From a virus, in IMG/VR virus record IMGVR_UViG_3300045988_165521: DNA of 64,000 nucleotides, one strand, 5' to 3'. Position numbers and translations under genes: made by a program. Numbering within the stretch: the stretch's first letter is position 1; each line of letters opens with the position of its first letter. The notes beneath the pieces were generated by a model that saw nothing but the letters and a program-made list of their open reading frames with translations, searched no databases and had not been told where the DNA came from. Positions 1,022 to 61,824 of this stretch are shown piece by piece.

Positions 1022-3257
1022 ACCAGTACTTATTTATAGCTTCTCCTGCTCTTATTCTTTTATTTAGATTAGGCTTTCCTGCTCTAAGAAATAATGCTTC
1101 AAATGCTTTAGTAGCTCTAGTTAGATCTCCACTTTCTCAATCCTGCCAAGCTTGCTCTGTAGTATATCCTTTGTGCATAAAAATGCTTCTTTCTCAATCT
1201 TTTAATTTGTCTATGTCTTTTTCAGATGTATTAAGAGCTTTTTGTTTATCTTTTTCGGTGGCTCTATCTCAAGGAGTTTTAAGTATTTTATTTTTTTCAT
1301 TAAATAACTCAGAAACATATTGAACTTGTAGTGCAATAGAATCTTCTCTTCCATTTAATCATTTGTTATACAATTCTAGAGCTTTTGGTTCAAACATCAT
1401 TATACCCTTTGCTGGACCCTTTTTATTTTGTTTTAACCTAGTTCATCCTTGAGTTTCGGTATATGTATTTGCTAATACTGCATTTATTTGTGAGTCATTG
1501 CCTTTAAAGTTATCTGTAACTATTTTTGCTCATTCATAGTTTGAATTTCTTACCATTATTGGTTCATATCACGTTTTCCCAGAATTATATAATGTTTCTA
1601 TATCTCCTTTCTGCCTAGCAGTTTTATATTCATTATAAAAATCTAGTGCTTTAGTTGGATTAGTCATTAAACTATCTCTAAATTCTAATTTAGATAAATC
1701 GTTATTTGTATTTCATAAACTAACATCTTTTATTAGTTTATTAATTCTTTGATCTTTTATTACATTTGAATTACCAACTATACCCTCTGAATTTAAAGGA
1801 GGAAGTTCAATCGGCTTTGAAGGATTTTGATATTTAGGTATTTTTAATCCCAACTGAGCATATAATGTAGTATCTTTCTTTTTAGTAGGCGCTTGAGCTA
1901 CATTATTAAATAAATAAAGTAAGAAATCATCACTATATCTATTCAATAAATTATATGTATTCTCTTTATTATAATGTGGAGTAACTGTAGACTCTTCAGG
2001 TACAATTTTATATTCGGGATTAAATGGTTCTGATTGAATTATCTTTCCATCTTTATCAAATTGTGATACTGAGAAACTACCTTTACCTTCTGAATTTTTA
2101 AGTCTATTTGTAAGAGTATAATGATCTAAATGTTCCTTCTTAATATTTTGTATTTCTTCTTTAGTAAATTTATGATTAGGATCTGCATTAATACTATATC
2201 TTAACTGCATTAATCTAGCATAAATTTCTTGAGGATTATCTAAATATTCATCAGGAACGATTGTTTTATTATCATAGACAGTATCTCCAAAATTATCTTG
2301 ATACTTCTTAATTACTTTCTCTTGTGCATCAGGTAAACTACTATGAGTTCATTCATGAATTGCAGTACTAGTTGATCCATCTGTTAAAAATATTCTTCTA
2401 CCAAACGGATAATAAACTCCTGAAGCATTATCAGGGACTTTACTCGGATTTATCTTTGCTCTAGTAAGATCTAAATTTCTTTTAAGTGCATTAAATACTA
2501 AAGATTCAGTTACAGGGAGAGGAATTGGTAGAACTTGTTTAACATTTTGTTTTACTAAACCTTTACGTGATTTATATCAATCTTCAAGCCACTGTTTTCC
2601 TTCTTGAATTCCTCCTTGTTGAAATTTTAATACTCCTCCATGTTTAGCAGAAGCTATAACTTGATTTAAAATATTTGCATATCTTGGATCTGTAGCATAT
2701 CCTCCTCTATGAACTCTATTTGCAAATTCTTTTATATCTCCAGAGAATGCGTTATAACGTTTATTATTTAATAGATCAATTTTAAAGTTTGCATAATCTT
2801 CAAGTGATTTGAAATTTCTAAATTGATCATTTATATAAATATCCTTACCATTAATAACTTCTCTAGTTCGTTTAGTTGTTCCCTTTCCTTTAATACCTCC
2901 AAAATTATATGATCCTGCAGGTTTAGAACCTCAAGCTGATTCTAATCCGTCTTGTGCTACTAATGATTTAGCAAATGCAGGATTTAAACCTTTTGATTTT
3001 AATAATCTTTCATAAATAGGAAGCATTGTATCTTTGAAATCCTTTTTAGAATTGAATTTATGAACTGTAGTTTCTTGAACTATTGGTTCTGGATTTCTTA
3101 TCTCTTCTACTTGAGATTGTACTTCTGTCTCTGTATCATCTTCCAAAGGTTGAGAATATCTGGGTTTATATACAGGTATTTCAAGATTTGGAATTTGAAT
3201 ATTAATATCTCCTAAAGCACTATCTCGTATGAATGGTCTGTATGTGATATCGTTCAT
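1008..3257 (-). CDS. multi-domain peptidoglycan hydrolase-like protein (about 749 aa), translated with TGA=Trp
   Basis: One 750-codon frame is interrupted only by TGA (about ten; no TAA or TAG). Track fragments 2931..3257 and 1713..2210 are in the same frame. LVAQDGLESA[W]GSKPAGSYNFGGIKGKG resembles a glucosaminidase/FlgJ-type motif, and AIHE[W]TH is an HExxH motif. Confidence 0.8.
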
Positions 3258-3298
3258 AATAATTGTTTTATATTATTTTGCAAATATATACATTATTT

Positions 3299-3658
3299 TT
3301 ATAAATCACAAATTACAGCACCTATTTCTGGATCTAATTTACAACGATTTGAATTCTCTAATTCAGAAATTCTAGATGTTAAATTATCTACTTTATTTTC
3401 TAATTCAGAAACTTTAGATAATAAATAACTTGTTACGCTTTCTAAAGCTGCGATTCTTTGTTCTAATTCATTTTTTATATTAGTTGCTGTAGTACCTACT
3501 GAGTTTGCCATAGCACTCGCTACCCCTATAGTACTTACCATACCTATATATGGATTAGGTGTTGTATTAATTATACTTCCAGGAAATGAAATAGTACCCG
3601 ACAAATCTGCTGTAGTCTTATCTGTTATAGTCATATTTGTTGTATCCATATTATGCAA
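3299..3658 (-). CDS. hypothetical coiled-coil protein (119 aa)
   Basis: ORF-track ORF. The C-terminal half has heptad-like repeats (ELEQRIAALESVTSYLLSKVSELENKVDNLTSRISELE). The start overlaps the upstream stop. Confidence 0.6.
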   Translation of the reverse strand: MHNMDTTNMTITDKTTADLSGTISFPGSIINTTPNPYIGMVSTIGVASAMANSVGTTATNIKNELEQRIAALESVTSYLLSKVSELENKVDNLTSRISELENSNRCKLDPEIGAVICDL

Positions 3659-4394
3659 AATTAAAATCAGAATTAGTATTTAATCTACTTAAAAGTTTTT
3701 CATTTTCTTGTTTTAATTTCATAATTTCCTTACGTAGATTTTTAATATCTTCTGAATGTTTTTCAATCTGTTCTGAATGTTGATCTACTTTTTGATTTAC
3801 AAATAAGATTGCTTGACATACTAAAGATAAATCAATAAGTTTAGCAGATTTACGTAATCCTGATATTTTATCTAAAGCAGATGTTCTACTTGTAATTAAA
3901 ATACCTTTATCTTCTAATTGTCTAAATACTCTAGTTAATACTTTAGTACTTATGTCCATTTTTGCTGCAAGTTCTTTATTAGTTTTAGTTGTAATAGCAA
4001 ATTGTCCATCATTTGTACTAGTGTATTGTTGCATTGCTAATAGAACTCCTTTTTCTTCAGGAGTAGTATTCTCAGCATCCATAAACTCGTAAGTAAATCT
4101 TTCAAAATATCTTCCCGATTTTTGAATCTCATAAATATTACTCCTACCTTTTTTCTTTTCTAGAATTTTAATTTCACCTGCTGCATTTAGTTTTTTAATA
4201 CTACTTTGCACTGTATTAATAGATACTCTTGCTAATTCTGCAAGAGTTCTTAGTGAAACAAAAGTTTGGAATGTATCTTTATCCATATTTTTTCTCATAT
4301 AACCATAAATGAGATAATCAGTAGGATTCATTTTAATTTCTTTTGCAACCCCCAAATCATGAGGGACTTGAATGTGTTGTACTTTATTATCCAT
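3651..4394 (-). CDS. winged-helix DNA-binding protein, candidate replication initiator or regulator
   Basis: Two HTH-like segments (LRTLAELARVSINTVQSSIKKLNAAGEI and NKELAAKMDISTKVLTRVFRQLEDKGIL) plus a C-terminal coiled coil. The gene abuts the iteron-like repeats at 4512-4601. Confidence 0.65.
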   Translation of the reverse strand: MDNKVQHIQVPHDLGVAKEIKMNPTDYLIYGYMRKNMDKDTFQTFVSLRTLAELARVSINTVQSSIKKLNAAGEIKILEKKKGRSNIYEIQKSGRYFERFTYEFMDAENTTPEEKGVLLAMQQYTSTNDGQFAITTKTNKELAAKMDISTKVLTRVFRQLEDKGILITSRTSALDKISGLRKSAKLIDLSLVCQAILFVNQKVDQHSEQIEKHSEDIKNLRKEIMKLKQENEKLLSRLNTNSDFNFA

Positions 4395-4899
4395 AAATTA
4401 ATATTTTTAATATTACAAAGATATAACATTTATTTAATATTACCAAATATTTATACCAATATTTATTTAAAGTGTATAAGAATTTGATATAGTACATTCA
4501 ATTTAAAAATAGCCCTGGGAGATACACTAAGGTGTCGTTTTTGATACACCTATTTTAAAAAAGTGCCCTGGGAGATACACTTATATGCCCTGGGAGATAC
4601 CTATCTATATATGTTCTCGCTTCGCGGAGGCGCTCGAACAGATCTATATACCTGTTGGGTTGTTTAAACAACCCCCCCCATTGAGTTTAGAAAAAGAGAT
4701 TTGTGTATGGATATCATGTATACATACGAATATTGTATATATTGTATACACATATGGATACTCTATTAAAACTCCCCCTGGGGGTTTCAGATGGAAAATC
4801 GAAATTTTTTCGAGTAAAATATTTCTGACAAAAGTTCTATTTTTAGAAACCAAAGCATCTGAACTGTCTATATGTTAAACTTTTTCATCTAATACCATT
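4395..4899. promoter_or_regulatory. divergent intergenic control region, origin-like
   Basis: It lies between the minus-strand and plus-strand gene blocks. It contains 3 direct repeats, a CCCCCTGGGGG near-palindrome (4774-4784), a C8 tract and AT-rich TGTATAC palindromes. Confidence 0.4.
4512..4601 (+). repeat. three direct repeats GCCCTGGGAGATAC (iteron-like)
   Basis: Copies are at 4512-4527, 4565-4580 and 4587-4601. GATACAC recurs at 4542-4549. Confidence 0.85.
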
Positions 4900-5352
4900 A
4901 TGAAAAACATCGCACTTATCAAATCGATCGTCGCTACTTCCATTTCGTCGGCAAACCCTGCTGAGCTCACTGAGCACATAGCAGCTCTCATTCAGGCTCA
5001 TCCTGAAGAGACTCGAGAGAACGCGCTTGCCATCCTCACTGGCACTGCAGAACTCACGGTTCGTCCTGTAGACCAGGTTGAACTGACCTGCAACAGCAGC
5101 AACTACACCAACCTCTCGTTCATGGGCGAGCCTACCGTAAATCTGCTCGAAGGAACGGTTTGTTGCTCTATCAACTACACACGAACCGAAACTCGCTGGT
5201 ACAAGACCGAGGAAGACGCCAATGCTCGAAGGAACGGCAGCTACAACCATGACGACTATGTCATCGCGCGCGAGAAAGCGTATGAAGACTCTACGAGTGT
5301 AACATTCGACATCCGCGAGTGGAACACTGGCAAGGTCGTGTGGAAACGCTAA
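4900..5352 (+). CDS. hypothetical protein (150 aa), GC-richer codon usage
   Basis: ORF-track ORF with an ATG start, followed by a strong hairpin plus T-run. G+C is visibly higher than in the flanks. Confidence 0.7.
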   Translation: MKNIALIKSIVATSISSANPAELTEHIAALIQAHPEETRENALAILTGTAELTVRPVDQVELTCNSSNYTNLSFMGEPTVNLLEGTVCCSINYTRTETRWYKTEEDANARRNGSYNHDDYVIAREKAYEDSTSVTFDIREWNTGKVVWKR

Positions 5353-8948: not shown

Positions 8949-9194
8949 TTCATTTCTAAGAAAACTATGCGAAAGAAAGATTTCGCATGTCTCAAAGCAG
9001 AGAAGCCGAACTATAAGGCTTTTCGCGCACCGAAAGAAAATGCGAGACACAAGTTTCAGACGCTTTTCAAAACTCCTCGTGGCTGGTTTCTCAGCATGAT
9101 GCAAGACAAAAAGCGTGTGATCGGCGAAATCTCTGTTCCTGCAGCTCAGGAATGGCTCGACGAGTGTCATTTCAAATACGAAACTGGCTGGTAA
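8946..9194 (+). CDS. hypothetical basic protein (82 aa), GC-richer
   Basis: ORF-track ORF preceded by the conserved 31-nt cassette. Confidence 0.6.
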   Translation: MFISKKTMRKKDFACLKAEKPNYKAFRAPKENARHKFQTLFKTPRGWFLSMMQDKKRVIGEISVPAAQEWLDECHFKYETGW

Positions 9195-9230
9195 GCCACC
9201 TCCTTTCTTTGTAGTTAATGAATTCATAGC

Positions 9231-10368
9231 GAGAACCTTTGGGGCTATCTTGCCGTGACTGAACCATTAACAACGAGCAACCCTGGCACAACTCGTAAAC
9301 GCCAGGAACAGTCTATCTACACATAAGGTCTAAGGACTAATTTGTGAATATAAATCCTCCTCCCCAAGTTGAATTTTATTCCGAATTGGATAGTTAATAG
9401 AGATGTCTGCGTGAGCAGGATTGGTAGTACCCTCTATTGTTAAAACTGTTTCTTTTTGACATTTTTTATCTAAATATATAAATCTAGATTATGAAATTCG
9501 CAGTAGGCTAGCTTTAATGCTTAAAAGTTCTTAGTTTAATTTTATTTCCTCTGATTTAATTCGAGTGAACAAATTGCAGAAGTAACTCACCTGCACTAAC
9601 AAGCTAGAATATGAAAGCAAGAGACGGTCCGAATATGTAGGATTTATTTTTTATTCATAATAATTTATTTGGAGAAATTAAACATAAAAATGCCTAAGAA
9701 ATTAGGTGTGTTGAATAGGAAGGCACTTGTCCTATTGCACGCAAGTTAATTACGGTTATTTCTAATATATGCTAGCAACATTGATGTAATCCAATTAATA
9801 TTGCCTATATAAGAGATGCGGAAGACTGTTAAGTGTCGAACTACCAAGCGGTTTAACAGGGATAGAGACTCTATGGTAACATAGAGAATTTGCTGGATAG
9901 CGTGGATTCACATACGTAAATGTGGAGCAAAGGAAAATGGCAGAATTACCAAACTTCTTTTCAATAGGGACGAAATTTATCTATAGACAATAACCAGTTA
10001 GCTCGTAATGTCTGCCTTTCAGATTAGCTAGTCTAGAAAGTTGAGTGAGTTATATAGACAAGAAAAGAAGAAAACCCTCGAGTTAGAGGTCATATAAGAA
10101 TTATTATCTTACCTAGCTAGTAAGATTGATCTGTAATGTTGACTGTAGTACGACAGATGATCGTAATCTTATATGTTGATTAACCGTAACAGTAGTAATT
10201 GTAATTCTTTATTATTAAAGTTTTTACATGCTGGAGAGAAGGCAGAACTCTCTTTGGAATCTGTCGTTTAGGTATAGCTTCTTTGATCGGAAGCTATACC
10301 ACTAAAATGTCTGTAATTGCACTTTTTCATTTTAAAGAGAGTTTCCGATCTCTATAAAAATCGGATTC
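9231..10368 (+). ncRNA. ORF-free block B (about 1.1 kb), candidate large structured RNA
   Basis: All six frames are closed by TAA, TAG and TGA. G+C is intermediate. It contains hairpin copy B near its 3' end and is followed directly by tRNA-Glu. Confidence 0.35.
10271..10300 (+). repeat. conserved-loop hairpin, copy B
   Basis: Stem GGTATAGCTTC/GAAGCTATACC around loop TTTGATCG. Confidence 0.85.
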
Positions 10369-13417: not shown

Positions 13418-13487
13418 ATGTGAATAGCTCAGTTGGTAGAGCGGCAGGTTGTGCTGAGGGTCGCAGGTTCGAGTCCTGTTTCACATC
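13418..13487 (+). tRNA. tRNA-like gene with a truncated anticodon arm (14 nt instead of 17)
   Basis: The acceptor (ATGTGAA/TTCACAT), D arm (GCTC-AGTTGGTA-GAGC) and T arm (GCAGG-TTCGAGT-CCTGT) are all regular. Only GCAGGTTGTGCTGA lies between position 26 and the variable loop. Confidence 0.45.
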
Positions 13488-13507
13488 CAAAATTAAAAAT
13501 TAAAATT

Positions 13508-21964: not shown

Positions 21965-22342
21965 GGGGCTGCTAGGTATTTGATCCTAATGTCAAGTAAT
22001 ATCAATCGTGTCGAGTTTGATTCATACTCGTAAAACAGATTCAAACAATAAACGCAAATAACATTTTTTCGCGCATTATCAACAAGGTTGAGACGGCGCT
22101 GTTTGGCGACATTGAAGGAGTAGCTTTAATAGCTGCGTAAATCAATGGGAGGTTCGTCACTCTTAAACTGGCGAGAACAACACTTCCTTTCAAGGTTTGG
22201 CTTCGTTCCTTAAAAATGAGCTGGTGGATGGGTCACCTTCGGGTACCCCTATTGGGTAGTTCCAATTAAAACAAAACTAACACACGTAATAAGTTGATAT
22301 TAGGAGAATTAGGAGACACGCGTTCGATTCGCGTCAGCTCCA
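21965..22342 (+). ncRNA. ssrA: tmRNA (transfer-messenger RNA)
   Basis: 5' GGGGCTG pairs with 3' CAGCTCC, including G3-U70, and is followed by A73. The T arm is ACGCG-TTCGATT-CGCGT. The ends resemble E. coli GGGGCUGAUUCUGGAUUCGAC and ...CCAGCUCCACCA. An internal frame ...GDIEGVALIAA-TAA (stop at 22138-22140) looks like a tag. Length is 378 nt. Confidence 0.85.
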
Positions 22343-22350
22343 CTATTTAA

Positions 22351-33405: not shown

Positions 33406-33477
33406 GCACTCTTGATGTAACTGGTAACATGACAGTCTCCAAAACTGTTCTTTGGGGTTCGAATCCTTAAGAGTGTG
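33406..33477 (+). tRNA. tRNA-Trp(CCA)
   Basis: Acceptor GCACTCT/AGAGTGC. Anticodon arm is ACAGT-CTCCAAA-ACTGT, T arm is TGGGG-TTCGAAT-CCTTA. Confidence 0.85.
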
Positions 33478-33491
33478 CTTATATATAATTA

Positions 33492-36626: not shown

Positions 36627-36698
36627 GCGTCGTTGGTGTTAGTGATAGCATATTAGACTTCCAATCTAAAGGGGAGAGTTTGAATCTCTTACGACGCT
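36627..36698 (+). tRNA. tRNA-Gly(TCC)
   Basis: Acceptor GCGTCGT/ACGACGC. Anticodon arm is TTAGA-CTTCCAA-TCTAA, T arm is GAGAG-TTTGAAT-CTCTT. Confidence 0.9.
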
Positions 36699-36720: not shown

Positions 36721-37449
36721 ATGAAAACTATTAAAGAACTTTCAGATAGACAAATTAAACTTGCGTGAATTAGTAGTAAAAGTTTATATGAAATTTGTAA
36801 AAAATTAGAAATTCACGATAATACTTATAATAGAAAATATTTAAGAGTTTGAGGAGTTAAGGAAGGACTAAAAATTCCTGTTTTTACACGATTTACTAAA
36901 ACAGATTATATAAAAAATCCTAAATTGTGTAAAAAATGTAAAAAACCTATTCCTTGAAATCAAAGAGAAAATAACTTCTGTTCTCACTCTTGTGCAACTA
37001 GTTATACAAATATAAAAAGAGGTGCTATAACTAGTGGTAAATATGTCAAAAATGCAACTAGTAAATGCTTAAATTGTGGAAAGGAAATTTTTGCAAGAAA
37101 TAAATATTGTAGTATTATTTGTCAAGTTGAATTTAAATATAAGGAGTATATTCAAAGGTGGAAAGACGGGAAAGAAACAGGAATGTCTGGTACAGATGGT
37201 CTTTCAAATCATATAAGAAAATATTTATTAGATAAGACTAATTATACTTGTGAAATTCCAGGGTGTGGATGCAATTTTATTAATCCTTATACTGGATTAT
37301 CTATTTTGCAAATTCATCATATAGATGGAGATGCAACTAATAATAAAGAGCAAAATCTTCAGGTTTTATGTCCTAATCATCATGCTATGACAGAACATTT
37401 TGGCTCCAGAAATAAAAATAGTACTAGAAAGTATCGTTATAAAAAGTAA
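36721..37449 (+). mobile_element. HNH homing-endonuclease-like gene, copy 1 (242 aa, three in-frame TGA)
   Basis: A 243-codon frame is broken only by TGA. It contains the HNH motif LQIHHIDGDATNNKEQNLQVLCPNHH, Cys4 zinc-ribbon pairs and an N-terminal HTH-like region. It starts 22 nt after tRNA-Gly. Confidence 0.8.
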
Positions 37450-45405: not shown

Positions 45406-46017
45406 ATGATAAGTTGAAAATTAGAAAAAGAAAATTTAATTAAGTTCCTTATTGATGAAAAATTAAGTTTTGAAGAAGTAGGTCGTAAGTATAAATGTAG
45501 TGGTAGCAATATTAGAAAAGTAGCACAACGTTTAAATATAATTGTTCCTTCTAGAAGAGCAGTAAATCCATGCGAAACTTTTAGAAGAGGAACTGCTAAA
45601 AAAGGTATCTGTAAGAACTGTGGAAAAGAATTTATATTATATTTATCTCATAGCGGAATTTATTGTAGTAGTAAATGTCAACAAGAGTACCAATCTAAGA
45701 AAAGATATGAATTAATTCTTAATGGAGATCCTTCTATTATGAGAGCTAATTATAACCCTAGATCATCTAAGAAGTATATATTAGAGGAACAGAATAATAA
45801 ATGTGCCATTTGTGGGATGGAACCCAGTTGAAATGGGAAAGAGTTAGTTTTTATTTTAGATCATATTGACGGTCATGCTTCTAATAATAAAAGAGATAAT
45901 TTAAGATGTATATGTCCTAATTGCGATTCTCAGTTGGATACTTACAAATCTAAAAATAAAAACGGAGACAGATATTATTATAGATACTATAAAAGTAGGA
46001 GTGACCAGAATGGATAA
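45406..46017 (+). mobile_element. HNH homing-endonuclease-like gene, copy 2 (203 aa, two in-frame TGA)
   Basis: Contains MIS[W]KLEKENLIKF...CAICGMEPS[W]NGKELVFILDHIDGHASNNKRDNLRCICPNC. Its last 23 nt overlap the downstream tRNA. Confidence 0.75.
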
Positions 46018-46081
46018 TGGACCAGACTTCTAATCTGGCGAGCTGCAATGCTCATTGCGGGTTCGACTCCCGCCTCCTATA
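45995..46081 (+). tRNA. class II (long variable arm) tRNA with anticodon TCT
   Basis: Acceptor GTAGGAG/CTCCTAT (G1-U72). It has a Ser-like 3-bp D stem, anticodon arm CCAGA-CTTCTAA-TCTGG, an 18-nt variable arm with stem GAGC/GCTC, and T arm GCGGG-TTCGACT-CCCGC. Confidence 0.75.
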
Positions 46082-46097
46082 CTAAATAAATATAACT

Positions 46098-48204: not shown

Positions 48205-49245
48205 ATGACATATGGATTGAACGATATTTGTTTAGTACCTGCTAGGATTAGTGATATTGAACATCGTGAACAATGTAATCCATATAATGCTGATAATATG
48301 CTCCCGTTGTTTACTGCTCCTATGAGTTCAGTAATTAACGAGAGCAATTATCAGGTATTTATGGATAATAAAATAAATACTATAATTCCTCGTTCAGTAG
48401 ATTTATCTACTAGATATGAGTTAATGTCAAAAACTTTTGTGGCCTTAAGTTTATCTGAATTTGAAACATTTGCAGGTCTAGAATTAGGTGAAATTAAGGA
48501 GGAAGAAATATTTTATATATGCGTAGATATTGCTAATGGTCATATGCGTAAGCTTATTGATCTTTGTAAATCTGTAAAACAGAAATATGGAGGTCATGTT
48601 ATACTAATGGCAGGCAATATTGCAAATCCTGATACTTATATAGATTATGCCTTAGCTGGTATTGATTTTGTACGTGTTGGAATTGGTGGTGGATCAGTAT
48701 GTACTACTTCTGCAAATGGAGGAGTTCATTATGCTATGGCTTCTTTAATTAAAGAGGTTGTAGATCGTAAGTGGGAGATAGAAAAAGCAATTAAAGATGC
48801 AGAAGCTATGCGTATTTCCCATAAATATGAGTCTTTGCCATTTATTGTAGCTGATGGAGGATTTGATAATTATGATAAGATTATTAAAGCGTTAGCATTA
48901 GGTGCAGATTATGTAATGGTAGGCAAAATCTTTGCTCAAGCAGAAGAAGCTTGTGGTAAAGTAATAGAACATTGGGTACGAGGAGAGTATATTGCTCGAG
49001 ACCGAGTTTATTATGGGATGTCTACTAAAAAAGCTCAAGTAGAAACTGGAAGTCAAAAATTAAAAACAGCAGAAGGAATAGAAGTTACAGTACCTATTTT
49101 GTATCCTTTAAGTGGATGGTGTGAGAATTTTGTTCATTATCTTCGATCAATGATGAGTTATACAAACTCTTTTACACTTAGTGATTTTAAAAATACAGAA
49201 TATCGTATTGTTAGTCCTTCTGAATATTTATCATATTATAAGTAA
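48205..49245 (+). CDS. guaC: GMP reductase / IMP dehydrogenase-family enzyme
   Basis: 346 aa. Contains ICVDIANGH, VGIGGGSVCTT (catalytic Cys loop) and VADGG...GADYVMVG. The size and motif order match GuaC. Confidence 0.8.
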   Translation: MTYGLNDICLVPARISDIEHREQCNPYNADNMLPLFTAPMSSVINESNYQVFMDNKINTIIPRSVDLSTRYELMSKTFVALSLSEFETFAGLELGEIKEEEIFYICVDIANGHMRKLIDLCKSVKQKYGGHVILMAGNIANPDTYIDYALAGIDFVRVGIGGGSVCTTSANGGVHYAMASLIKEVVDRKWEIEKAIKDAEAMRISHKYESLPFIVADGGFDNYDKIIKALALGADYVMVGKIFAQAEEACGKVIEHWVRGEYIARDRVYYGMSTKKAQVETGSQKLKTAEGIEVTVPILYPLSGWCENFVHYLRSMMSYTNSFTLSDFKNTEYRIVSPSEYLSYYK

Positions 49246-52368: not shown

Positions 52369-52424
52369 TTTGTATATTTTCAGATTTTTTACTACCTTTG
52401 CTGTATAACTAAAGGTAGTAAAAT

Positions 52425-52862
52425 GCGAGCTTAGTGTAATGGTAGCACAGCGGTCTTCGAATTGGAGCACGCTTGGCGTGAAAATTGTGGCAAATTCGGT
52501 AAAAGCGAAATAAGATGATAAAAATCATGCGAATCAGCTTTCTAAGAAAGTCTAAGGTCCCGAAATATGGATAGCTGATAATACCGAGCTAAATTAGAGT
52601 AAAATACAGTAGAGAACATAGGCTGTCTATGCCGTGTAAAATAGGCGGAGTGCTTAGTAGGTCGAAAATTAAAGCCGTACACTTCTCTATGTATCCTACT
52701 TTACTCTATAAATGTGTAGAGACTAAATGCCACACTTGTATATCAAGCTGATATAGTCCAGACCACAAACAGTAAAACTGGTAGTGAAAACTATAGTGGT
52801 AAGCAAAACCGTATTGTAGGGCTCCAAACCCTACGGTCTCTGTTCGAATCGGAGAGCTCGTG
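52425..52862 (+). tRNA. intron-containing tRNA with anticodon TCA (TGA decoder, Trp-like) plus an extra CCA-looped arm
   Basis: The exons 52425-52457 and 52804-52862 give acceptor GCGAGCT/AGCTCGT (G1-U72), G73 and D arm GTGT-AATGGTA-GCAC. The anticodon arm is GCGGT-CTT|CAAA-ACCGT, the variable region is ATT-GTAGGG-CTCCAAA-CCCTAC-GGT, and the T arm is CTCTG-TTCGAAT-CGGAG. Confidence 0.8.
52458..52803 (+). ncRNA. group I intron (ORF-less, IC3-like) in the anticodon loop
   Basis: P1 pairs CTTC (52455-58) with GGAG (52464-67), with U52457-G52465 at the 5' splice site. The core strings TAGAGACTA (52717-25) and GATATAGTCC (52750-59) can form P7. A terminal G is at 52803. Confidence 0.75.
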
Positions 52863-52876
52863 CTAATAAGTTGATT

Positions 52877-53446
52877 ATGAGTAAGTTAAAGGAACAAATT
52901 CTTATTTTAAGAAGTGATAATAAAAGTTATAATGAAATTGCTAAGATACTTGGATGTAGCAAAAGTATTGTTGGATATTATTGTAATGATATAACTAATA
53001 GTAAACAACGAAAATCTACTTCATTATGACGTAATACACTTAAGGGGAGAATTAAATCTAGACTATGTACTTTTTGTGCTAGAATCTCTCATGGAGGTAG
53101 AAGAATCTCTAATAGAACATGACGTAAACGTTTAAGGAGATATATTGAACATTTTCAAAATAGAGGAACGAAGAGTTTAAATAAAATTAAGACTTTAGAT
53201 ATTATTAATAAATTTGGTACAAAAACAAAGTGCTATTTAACAGGTACTCCTATAGATTTAGAAAAAGATAATTATTGTTTTGATCATATAGTTCCTGTTT
53301 CTAAAGGTGGAACAAATGATTTGTCAAATTTAGGTATTACAATTCCTATTGCTAATTATTCTAAATCTGATTTAACAGTAGAAGAATATTTAGAATTATG
53401 TAAGAAAGTACTTGAACATTATGGTTATACCGTTAATAAGATATAA
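52877..53446 (+). mobile_element. HNH homing-endonuclease-like gene, copy 3 (189 aa, two in-frame TGA)
   Basis: Contains MSKLKEQILILRSDNKSYNEIAKILGC...STSL[W]RNT...NRT[W]RKR...CFDHIVPVSKGGTNDLSNLGITIPIANYSK. It starts 15 nt after the intron-containing tRNA. Confidence 0.75.
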
Positions 53447-60600: not shown

Positions 60601-61824
60601 ATGAACAGAACGGAACGTCAAAAGCTTGCTATTAGACGTTGATTAGATAGTAATGGGATAGGCACAATTGTTGCTGCAACTGGATTTGGTAAGACCTATA
60701 TGACTTGCATGTTGATAAAGGCACTATATAATAAAAATCCTAGACTATCTGTATTAATTGGAGTTCCTACAGAGGTTCTAAAAGAACAATGACTTAGAGA
60801 GTTGGCTAAAAACCAACTCTTTTCTGTCTGTAAGGTAGAGATATTTAACACTATTGTTAAAAATCAGTATACAGTTGATTTATTTGTAATTGATGAAATT
60901 CATTGCGCATGTAGTGAAAATAACATCAATATGTTTAAAGCTGTAAAATATCGTTATTTTTTAGGATTAACTGCTACATTTGAGAGATTAGACGGAAAAG
61001 AAGACCGATTATCTGAGTTTACTTATGTTTGTGATCGTATAAATATAAAGGAAGCAGTTGATAATAATTGATTATCTGATTATAGAAATTATAAAGTTTT
61101 AATTGATGTAGACTTATCTCTATATCATGAATGAAATCAGAAATTTCAAAATCTATTTTCTATATTTAATTTTGAATTTAATACAGTAATGAATTGTATT
61201 AGTCGTCCTGGTTTTGCAAGTAAATATGCAAAGAAAACAGGATGAAGTGAATCTCAAGTTAAAGGATTTGCAGCAGCTTGAATGAGAATGTTAAGAAAAC
61301 GTAAGTCTTTTGTAATGTCTCATCCTAAGAAATTTGAAATAGCAGATAAGATATTAGATGCAAGAAGTAATAAAAAAGCAATTACTTTTTCAGCTACTAT
61401 TAAAGATGCAGAATATTTTAAGAAACGAGGATATGTTTTACATAGTAAACAGAAAAAGAAGGAAAATAATACCATTATAGAAAGTTTTAACCAACAAACT
61501 ATAGGTGTATTAAGTACTTCAAAATCTTGCGACGCAGGTGTAGATATAAAAGGGTTAAGTGTTGGAATTATATTAAGTGGAGATAGTTCAAAGACAAGGA
61601 CTACGCAGAGGATTGGAAGAATTTGTCGATTCGAACAAGGTAAACTCGCAGAAATGTTTACACTAGTTATTAAGGGAACTATAGAAGAAACCTGATATAA
61701 TAACTCTAATTCAAACCAACAGTATATAACTATTGATGAATCACAATTAGATATAGTGTTAAGTGGAAAGGAGATTTCTACTAGACCAAAAAAAGGCATA
61801 ATAGATATAGAACATAGATTTTAA
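60601..61824 (+). CDS. superfamily 2 (DEAD/DEAH-type) helicase, TGA=Trp
   Basis: Motif I is AATGFGKT, motif II VIDEIH, motif III GLTAT and motif VI TQRIGRICR. The 407-aa frame is broken only by TGA codons. Confidence 0.85.

Follow-up and report, generated by a model that had tools for sequence, protein, structure and literature searches.

A split phage tRNA gene predicted to yield a UGA suppressor with a second, tryptophan-type anticodon arm

Introduction

How the suppressor transfer RNAs (tRNAs) of recoded phages are charged in hosts that use the standard genetic code has been recognised as an unsolved problem (Borges et al. preprint 2021), and a locus in the IMG/VR virus record IMGVR_UViG_3300045988_165521 raises it in concrete form. 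The stretch of this record that we analysed (64,000 nucleotides (nt); hereafter the window, from whose first letter all coordinates are counted) contains at 52425-52862, on the plus strand, a tRNA gene that is interrupted by a 346-nt insert. Its joined exons would form a tRNA with the anticodon UCA and, in the variable region, a second anticodon-like arm with a CCA loop. What is the mature product of this gene, which amino acid does it insert and what could the additional arm be for? Suppressors have been detected in just 35-40% of recoded genomes and were undetectable in about 60-65% (Borges et al. preprint 2021); both these authors and Yutin et al. 2021 suspected that non-canonical or highly divergent tRNAs escape detection. 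The account that we favour, and hold to be probable as a whole, is that the gene encodes a tryptophan-inserting opal suppressor, that its pseudo-anticodon arm keeps it chargeable by the tryptophanyl-tRNA synthetase (TrpRS) of the host, and that the gene has been invaded by a mobile intron.

A tRNA(UCA) gene interrupted between positions 34 and 35

All exon and insert strings of the initial annotation, which had been made from the sequence alone, were found in the window at the positions it had assigned to them. The 5' exon (52425-52457) comprises the 5' strand of the acceptor stem (GCGAGCT, 52425-52431), the linking TA, the D arm GTGT-AATGGTA-GCAC (52434-52448), A26 (52449), the 5' strand of the anticodon stem (GCGGT, 52450-52454) and C32-U33-U34 (CTT, 52455-52457). 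After the insert (52458-52803), whose last base is G, the 3' exon (52804-52862) opens with C35-A36-A37-A38 (CAAA, 52804-52807) and the 3' strand of the anticodon stem (ACCGT, 52808-52812). It continues through a 25-nt variable region that holds the pseudo-anticodon arm (52813-52837) and the T arm CTCTG-TTCGAAT-CGGAG (52838-52854), and ends with the 3' strand of the acceptor stem (AGCTCGT, 52855-52861), which yields a G1.U72 pair, and the discriminator G73 (52862); a CCA tail is not encoded at this end. The minimum free energy structure of the joined exons is a five-arm cloverleaf (-34.1 kcal/mol). The spliced RNA, 92 nt long when mature, conforms to the tRNA layout (RF00005) with a 7-bp acceptor stem, a D arm with GG, a 5-bp anticodon stem with a 7-nt loop and a T arm with TTCGAAT.

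Standard gene finding passes over this locus. Default ARAGORN predicted 26 tRNA and transfer-messenger RNA (tmRNA) genes in the window and none at 52425-52862, where an Rfam scan at gathering thresholds made no call either. With introns allowed, ARAGORN returned a single split tRNA in the whole window, at 52425-52863; we rejected its intron placement (anticodon cgc, Ala), which breaks the splice-site rules of group I introns and conflicts with the intron-less alleles described below. Dozens of other viral contigs contain the exon sequences as uninterrupted tRNA genes, and the Rfam tRNA model scores the tested intron-less relatives at 38-62 bits against a gathering score of 29; on these sequence comparisons, the split tRNA is far from a chance occurrence. 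From the D arm on (position 8 onward), the 5' exon is the same as in intron-less homologues such as loci L035 and L039, with a different acceptor strand.

Where the RNA is joined can be read from intron-less relatives. In IMG/VR, 24 loci that contain an uninterrupted gene with the reading GCGGTCTTCAAAACCGT or a close variant were retrieved by pattern, and a search anchored on the terminal intron guanosine (omega-G) found at least 24 distinct intron-containing alleles with introns of 183-707 nt. All alleles share one insertion point, with GGTCTT before the intron and CAAAACC after its terminal G. Locus L186, with a 606-nt intron, and locus L066, with none, agree at 93 of 94 exon positions, 192 of 200 positions of the upstream flank and 198 of 200 positions of the downstream flank, and the difference between them is a 606-nt insertion precisely between CTT and CAAA. 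An intron-less copy that is syntenic with the genes downstream in the window was found as well (L143). In our hand-built model of the intron, a contiguous guide, UUGGAG, pairs through GGAG with exonic CUU and the adjoining intron base c (P1) and through UUG with CAA of the 3' exon (P10). Since the intron-less alleles, P1 and P10 and omega-G all place the junction between CUU and CAAA, the anticodon loop is CUUCAAA and the anticodon UCA; the ligated junction is predicted to read GCGGUCUU joined to CAAAACCGUAUUGUAGGGC. The split of a tRNA(UCA) at 34/35, proposed in the initial annotation, is thus borne out by the intron-less homologues, the L186/L066 pair and the guide pairing, and a tRNA(UCA) divided by a group I intron is almost certainly what the locus contains.

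The same exons could in principle be spliced elsewhere. Excision of everything from GCGGT to ACCGT together with a linker would remove the whole UCA hairpin and leave a canonical tRNA-Trp(CCA). Those boundaries have neither a U.G pair on the 5' side nor a terminal G on the 3' side, and the guide pairs with CUU and CAA instead; moreover, the phage already has a canonical tRNA-Trp(CCA), and the intron-less genes, which keep the UCA hairpin in the DNA, contradict an ordinary tRNA-Trp(CCA) as the product. We regard such alternative splice sites as scarcely credible.

The second arm defines a viral tRNA family

In the window copy, the variable arm consists of the stem GTAGGG/CCCTAC (52816-52821 and 52829-52834), which can be extended to 9 bp via A-U and U.G pairs of the flanking ATT and GGT, and of the loop CTCCAAA (52822-52828), which is the sequence of the tRNA-Trp anticodon loop. 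We collected 39 distinct two-arm tRNA(UCA), nearly all from phage contigs. The initial annotation had noticed the CCA arm in the window and named its conservation and covariation in related phage contigs as a check: the loop N-UCCA-(A/U)-A is present in 39/39 sequences (CUCCAAA in 30, GUCCAAA in 8 and GUCCAUA in 1), set on 23 distinct inner stems whose inner 4 bp are always paired (100% compared with 61%, at most 73%, with shuffled partner strands). The variable region measures 24-28 nt throughout the family, with hairpin stems of 4-9 bp, mostly 5-6 bp, and linkers of 3-6 unpaired nt on each side of the hairpin.

Our first search pattern demanded both loops; a second one therefore described nothing but the D arm and the UCA arm. 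Of the 23 matches to this arm-agnostic pattern, three are ordinary tRNAs of 71-72 nt and 20 carry the arm, whose loop contains UCCA in every case. In a scan of 185,579 bacterial and archaeal species, each represented by one genome, there was one true match, on a 42-kb contig of a metagenome-assembled genome. The two-arm tRNA(UCA) family is essentially viral.

The acceptor stems of these tRNAs mostly resemble that of bacterial tRNA-Trp. G73 occurs in 39/39 two-arm tRNA(UCA), including G52862 of the window copy, and A1-U72 in 34/39; the commonest acceptor stem of the family is AGGGG/CCCCU, which carries the Trp determinants of Bacillus subtilis and Escherichia coli (identity review). The window copy has the pairs G1.U72, C2-G71, G3-C70, A4-U69 and G5-C68. 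Deletion of either arm leaves a canonical class I tRNA of 71-73 nt; in their anatomy, the two arms correspond to an anticodon arm duplicated in tandem. Regarding the ancestry of the arms, comparison of each with the co-resident canonical tRNA-Trp(CCA) showed no difference between the two readings. This canonical tRNA is encoded at 33406-33478 (plus strand, default ARAGORN) and also occurs in 13 related family loci that include tRNA arrays. UGG can thus be read without the CCA arm of the split tRNA.

In-frame TGA codons in the window

Among the plus-strand open reading frames (ORFs) of at least 150 amino acids (aa) from 4.9 to 52.4 kb, no in-frame TGA occurs except in three with HNH-endonuclease matches (36721-37449 and 45406-46017, below the Pfam cut-off, and 52877-53446, above it). 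From 55262 on (~55.3 kb), in-frame TGA is frequent, also in replication genes: the helicase gene at 60601-61824 has 7 TGA and 0 TGG codons, and a DnaB-like gene in the recoded region has 4 TGA and 0 TGG. The split gene lies at the border of the TGA-free and the TGA-rich blocks and is the sole tRNA with a UCA anticodon detected in the 64-kb window.

TGA residues 14 and 64 of the helicase align with tryptophans of archaeal XPB structures (RRxL/ERWL and EQx/EQW). In an alignment of 98 helicase homologues, every column with a Trp majority coincides with a TGA codon, a result that is circular, as the homologue that we checked also uses TGA there; the alignment to XPB of standard-code archaea was used in its place. 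The gain in six-frame ORF length under code 4 relative to code 11 is as large in control loci as in loci bearing the family. TGA at conserved Trp positions of archaeal XPB agrees with the recoding proposed initially for the window, and the reading of TGA as Trp in this phage is supported at the level of sequence. The closest relatives of the helicase are 39-41% identical and come from unannotated fecal phage records; a megablast search with 24 kb of the window against GenBank phages gave no near-identical match.

The two TGA-bearing ORFs below the cut-off each directly adjoin a tRNA gene. Both have weak HNH/Endonuclease VII matches; the neighbour of 36721-37449 is tRNA-Gly(UCC) at 36627-36698 and that of 45406-46017 is tRNA-Arg(UCU) at 45995-46082. 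This arrangement suggests that the ORFs at 36721 and 45406 encode homing endonucleases aimed at the tRNA array.

A mobile group I intron

The intron of the window (52458-52803) contains no ORF. In our model, P1 (52455-52458/52464-52467) includes the U.G wobble U52457.G52465 at the splice site and is followed by P2 (52468-52472/52476-52480), P3 (52486-52491/52729-52734), P4 (52495-52500/52583-52588), P5 (52533-52537/52575-52579), P6 with a long, 110-nt extension (52595-52603/52700-52708), P7 (52721-52725/52754-52758), P8 (52735-52738/52744-52747) and P9 (52763-52766/52796-52799) with a GAAA hairpin at 52782-52793; omega-G at 52803 is the terminal base. The core strings AGACUAAA and GAUAUAGUCC agree with the RF00028 consensus, and the aligned core, AGACUAAAUGCC together with GAUAUAGUCC, matches the classic P7/P3/J8-7 consensus. 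We counted the P1-P9 model on 10 distinct variants from related contigs: over 87 pairs, 98.5% of the cells are paired and 12 pairs have changed on both sides, three of them in P3 and the rest in P5a, P6, P6a, P6b and the P9 region. The number of such changes was 0-3 in slid controls, and no shuffle reached the observed values; P1 is invariant across the 10 variants. The group I hallmarks listed in the initial annotation, namely the U.G pair in P1, the terminal G and the core strings of P7, are present, and the 12 compensatory pairs add to them.

Sequences of crAss-like phages, cultured as well as uncultured, match the 3' part of the intron (P7'-P9) with 88-89% identity. The matching segment there has an ORF for a GIY-YIG endonuclease on one side and, on the other, the 3' piece of a split gene for the DnaB helicase, and it is part of an ordinary phage group I intron. 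No second group I intron emerged from an Rfam scan of the whole window at a relaxed threshold.

Among related alleles at the same site, the long introns (within loci L185-L221) encode nucleases of about 150 aa, mostly of the PD-(D/E)XK type (e.g. L186, L200, L185, L187 and L214), whose ORF matches PF11645 with 63.7 bits and PDB 2ost with E=1e-3. The latter is I-Ssp6803I, the enzyme behind the homing of the tRNA-fMet intron in cyanobacteria. The intron of L191 encodes an HNH/EndoVII-like ORF instead. In the window, a free-standing gene for a helix-turn-helix and HNH endonuclease (52877-53446, plus strand; Pfam HNH_4 23.7 bits, cut-off 22) starts 15 nt downstream of the tRNA and contains two in-frame TGA codons. 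It is missing from the variant-A loci L013 and L017 and is the likely homing partner of the ORF-less intron. Because near-identical phages differ in the presence of the intron, and because varied introns, some with homing endonucleases, occupy one site, we conclude that the intron is a selfish mobile element that stands outside the decoding design.

The initial annotation had offered another role for the intron: slow or conditional splicing would delay the suppressor and time the switch to TGA = Trp. The position of the gene at the border of TGA-free and TGA-rich blocks would suit such a timer, as would the fact that translation of the downstream HNH gene itself needs UGA suppression. Many family members, however, are intron-less, near-identical phages can differ in whether they carry the intron, and varied introns of 183-707 nt, some with homing endonuclease genes, at a single site are the signature of a selfish element. 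With this polymorphism and the mobile homing-endonuclease family against it, we do not favour the timer and consider it improbable.

Suppression activity, tryptophan charging and the role of the arm

Suppression data for members of the family have already been published. Table S1 of Seki et al. 2025 (bioRxiv 10.1101/2025.10.30.685624) gives UGA-suppression readouts in E. coli cell-free extract for 31 phage tRNA(UCA), with a background of 5,403 relative fluorescence units (RFU) without tRNA and 69,124 RFU for wild-type sfGFP as references; the text makes no mention of the arm. We sorted these tRNAs by the presence of the arm. All 13 with a UCCA-loop arm are active at UGA (26,699-58,947 RFU), compared with 2 of the 18 arm-less ones, the other 16 reaching at most 11,695 RFU. 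The association of arm and activity is strong (Fisher p=5e-7, Mann-Whitney p=1e-5) and confounded by shared ancestry. Within tRNAs that combine G1-(C/U)72 with G73, as far as the acceptor end is concerned, arm-bearing members gave 26.7-48.7k RFU and arm-less members 5.4-11.7k. The positive control for UGA suppression in that study, tRNAUCA-3, is identical to our locus L038.

All 13 tRNA(UCA) analysed by mass spectrometry inserted Trp (Seki et al. 2025, 10.1101/2025.10.30.685624). With 15 active tRNAs among the 31, all but two of them with the arm, at least 11 of the 13 tRNAs tested by mass spectrometry must be arm-bearing. Two tRNAs that come with a phage-encoded TrpRS, tRNAUCA-11 and tRNAUCA-13, lack the arm, and neither was charged by the E. 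coli enzymes (Seki et al. 2025, 10.1101/2025.10.30.685624). Together with the TGA codons of the window, these data make the split tRNA very probably a Trp-inserting UGA suppressor. One further member, tRNAUCA-4 (Cattle_ERR2019366_scaffold_1317679), combines a class II-like D arm, GCCGAGTGGTTCAAGGC, with the variable-arm loop CGUCCAAAA and gave 27,497 RFU at UGA; from this tRNA, the pseudo-anticodon arm may have been gained on more than one tRNA body.

The combination of UCA anticodon, long variable arm and G73 could also suggest a tRNA that accepts selenocysteine or serine, and ARAGORN labels the spliced form and the intron-less members 'tRNA-SeC(tca)'; SerRS recognises long variable arms largely via their size. 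The phage tRNA departs from this class in having 7/5 acceptor and T stems rather than the 8/5 of bacterial tRNA-Sec, and a D stem of 4 bp rather than 6. TGA is moreover frequent and found at conserved Trp positions, and Trp was what the tRNAs tested by mass spectrometry inserted, the arm-bearing ones included. These observations contradict selenocysteine or serine as the cargo, which we hold to be very improbable.

The amino acid being very probably Trp, the question is how TrpRS would recognise a tRNA with a UCA anticodon. TrpRS is known to recognise its tRNA by the anticodon, the first acceptor pair and G73, which counts as a major determinant in both E. coli and B. subtilis (identity review). 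The tRNA-Trp anticodon C34-C35-A36 is absent from the decoding position, which is occupied by U34-C35-A36, and CCA occurs solely in the loop of the variable arm. A possible solution is that the arm takes the place of the missing anticodon. TrpRS and TyrRS approach the tRNA from the side of the variable arm.

A parallel is found in amber suppressors. In the table of Seki et al., 26 tRNA(CUA) have long variable regions, and about 20 of these display in a hairpin the loop (C/U)U(C/U)UGA(A/G/C), which is the anticodon loop of tRNA-Gln; in an independent scan of IMG/VR (loci L222-L297) 60 of 76 matches (43 unique) are tRNA(CUA) with a CUCUGAA loop in the variable region on a 2-5 bp stem. As far as sequence can tell, the variable arm in both suppressor classes shows the sense anticodon of the inserted amino acid, Trp for UGA and Gln for UAG. 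The Gln-type loops that we noted are CUCUGAA, CUUUGAA and UUCUGAG. A Trp-type loop on an amber suppressor occurs as well: tRNACUA-44 (Cattle_ERR2019381_scaffold_760851) has a Trp-family body, a CUA anticodon and the loop GUCCAAA, and gave 56,217 RFU at UAG.

From these observations the following course can be proposed. The precursor would be transcribed and its intron would fold, with UUGGAG pairing first with CUU and the adjoining c (P1) and then with CAA (P10), and GTP-dependent splicing, as suggested by the structure and the intron-less alleles, would join CUU to CAAA. In the mature tRNA, UCA would be the anticodon, and CCA would be added post-transcriptionally to an acceptor end that resembles bacterial tRNA-Trp and has G73. 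CUCCAAA of the variable arm would then be read by the anticodon-binding domain of the standard-code TrpRS of the host, and the arm could in this way keep the UCA tRNA an efficient Trp acceptor in any infected host. Once charged, the tRNA would decode the in-frame TGA codons, starting just downstream of its own gene. For the step that concerns the arm, its recognition by TrpRS, we would give even chances. A CCA arm acting as a TrpRS identity mimic, as already suggested in the initial annotation, is the best-supported mechanism; the invariant loop, the published association with charging by a heterologous TrpRS and the parallel with Gln have strengthened the suggestion, and what they say about the role of the arm itself is indirect.

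Several points weigh against this account. The correlation of arm and activity is confounded not just by ancestry but also by acceptor identity (A1-U72/G73), and two arm-less tRNAs with an A1-U72/G73 acceptor are active. Earlier work cited by Borges et al. found TGA suppressor tRNAs to be tryptophanylated in E. coli, from which it follows that the mimic is not strictly required. The tip of the variable arm lies away from the position that the anticodon normally takes. The stems of the Gln-type arms have just 2-5 bp. GlnRS is a monomer that binds the opposite face of the tRNA. The window covers 64 kb of a genome of about 170 kb, and another UGA suppressor or a phage TrpRS may be encoded elsewhere. 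RF00028 scores the intron at 19.8 bits (E=0.011 in a 651-nt search), under its gathering score of 50, in an alignment that puts P1 wrongly and penalises the 110-nt extension of P6. Finally, the ligated or intron-less junction of variants A and B had 0 matches in JGI metagenome contigs.

The main physical alternative is a variant of the same identity idea with another mechanism. Such a 'two-headed' tRNA would be a five-way junction in which either hairpin could continue the D stem: stacking of the CCA arm would make it a tRNA-Trp(CCA) with a side hairpin, to be charged by TrpRS, and stacking of the UCA arm would let it decode UGA. The removal of either arm leaves a canonical class I tRNA of 71-73 nt, as this would demand; the UCA arm follows A26 like a normal anticodon arm, and the CCA arm is followed by a normal variable loop of 3-4 nt and the T arm. 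The stems of the variable hairpin also have mostly 5-6 bp, like real anticodon stems, and the length of the variable region is held at 24-28 nt. The Gln-type arms, in contrast, are too short at 2-5 bp to replace an anticodon stem, and in the one Rfam alignment examined, that of L035, the anticodon arm of the model falls on the UCA arm, and the CCA arm is treated as inserted. We consider an exchange of arms unlikely.

About as unlikely, in our view, is that the CCA arm serves folding or stability or is read by something other than TrpRS, such as a modifying enzyme, a host anticodon nuclease for which it is a decoy, a T-box leader or a phage protein. Conservation of the loop implies some reader without naming which, and arm-less tRNA(UCA) with Trp-like acceptor ends are chargeable by E. 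coli. A role in stability alone, however, would not fix seven loop nucleotides, and the loop copies the sense anticodon of exactly the inserted amino acid in both suppressor classes, which argues for an amino-acid-specific enzyme. We know of no nuclease or modification enzyme common to tRNA-Trp and tRNA-Gln. Recognition by the cognate synthetase thus continues to be the reading that we prefer.

Relation to known tRNAs and introns

Bacterial tRNAs with group I introns at position 34/35 have been described before, as have the suppressor tRNAs of recoded phages. The introns of cyanobacterial and plastid tRNA-Leu(UAA), Azoarcus tRNA-Ile and Synechocystis tRNA-fMet are likewise group I introns in the anticodon loop, with P1 and P10 formed from loop nucleotides, and 34/35 is the insertion site of the tRNA-Leu(UAA) introns, as in the split phage tRNA. 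The resemblance to the Synechocystis tRNA-fMet/I-Ssp6803I system extends to the enzyme, as the related phage-tRNA intron alleles encode a PD-(D/E)XK enzyme of the I-Ssp6803I family. Unlike in the bacterial cases, the host gene is a phage tRNA and a stop-codon suppressor, and the copy in the window is ORF-less, has a large P6 extension and is adjoined by a free-standing HNH gene. According to a 2014 review, all phage group I introns then known were located in protein-coding genes.

The window resembles recoded gut phages (Borges et al. preprint 2021; Yutin et al. 2021; Zeta crAss-like), which likewise have a UCA tRNA and in-frame TGA at Trp positions, a suppressor in standard-code-compatible DNA upstream of the recoded genes, and homing endonuclease genes that are preferentially recoded. 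Neither intron-split suppressors nor an anticodon-like variable arm is mentioned in the Borges and Yutin studies.

The arm itself has a synthetic precedent. An engineered suppressor tRNA with a mimic of an anticodon arm in its variable arm was designed to recruit the anticodon-binding domain of an aminoacyl-tRNA synthetase, and aminoacylation was enhanced (Mukai 2020, PMC7590224). That system was built on an allo-tRNA chassis with HisRS fused to an extra anticodon-binding domain, and no natural tRNA example was cited; the phage arm, by contrast, is natural and would need to work with the unmodified TrpRS of the host. Class II tRNAs (Ser, Leu and bacterial Tyr), tRNA-Sec and allo-tRNAs share the long base-paired variable arm, which is a possible identity element. 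The phage tRNA differs from class II tRNAs in its class I-like D arm (GTGT-AATGGTA-GCAC, with a 4-bp stem and a 7-nt loop), in its 7/5 acceptor and T stems, and in a variable-arm loop of 7 nt whose fixed sequence equals an anticodon loop. Hairpins that copy the cognate anticodon loop and are read by the anticodon-binding domain of a synthetase also exist in the E. coli thrS operator and in viral tRNA-like structures; these reside in mRNAs or viral genomes, where they serve regulation or 3'-end aminoacylation, and are not the second arm of a decoding tRNA.

A full-text literature search retrieved no description of an anticodon-like variable arm in a natural tRNA; most subscription journals lie outside its coverage and may hold an earlier one. 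The initial statement that no tRNA with this layout had been described stands for the descriptions found and fails for the sequences, as members of the family are listed, unremarked, in a published table of suppressor tRNAs. The two-arm suppressor layout is thus that of a large and apparently undescribed family of phage tRNAs.

A conserved copy of an anticodon loop in both Trp/UGA and Gln/UAG suppressors offers a concrete answer to the charging question and, if true, a new natural element of tRNA identity. More generally, and tentatively, since we would put it at somewhat less than even, pseudo-anticodon arms could be a portable device by which phages rewrite the code: a copy of a sense anticodon loop (CCA; CUG/UUG) would keep a suppressor chargeable by the unmodified host synthetase, either by direct binding of the arm or through a conformer with exchanged arms. 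Introns would have colonised the suppressor genes and hidden them, which could explain part of the 'missing suppressors'. Group I introns hide suppressor genes from default finders, and intron-aware searches should recover some of those missing. The arm may also be a transferable module for tuning the charging or orthogonality of suppressors, and the tRNAs that bear it are naturally efficient UGA suppressors in E. coli extracts.

Further features of the window and of related contigs

Just upstream of the split tRNA, its 5' leader contains a 9-bp hairpin, ACTACCTTT...AAAGGTAGT (52391-52419, plus strand), preceded by T6 and followed by A4, which has the same sequence in the diverged variant A and variant B loci. 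It gave no match in a terminator scan, unlike a terminator, and a scan for promoters and terminators around the split gene found nothing above shuffled expectation.

Elsewhere in the window, a phage tmRNA at 21965-22345 (Rfam 100.4 bits) has the predicted tag peptide ANNIFSRIINKVETALFGDIEGVALIAA, and for a tRNA-like gene at 13418-13488 (Rfam 48.8 bits) ARAGORN draws an anticodon loop of 6 nt, in which the 'anticodon' has two bases (tg). The IMPDH/GMP-reductase-like gene at 48205-49245 has a homologue in L057 (~2633-5239) that appears in two tblastn pieces about 1.5 kb apart; this split gene may contain another intron or an intein. In L135, a ROOL RNA (8971-9618; RF03087, 298 bits) lies inside a phage tRNA array that includes a two-arm tRNA(UCA).

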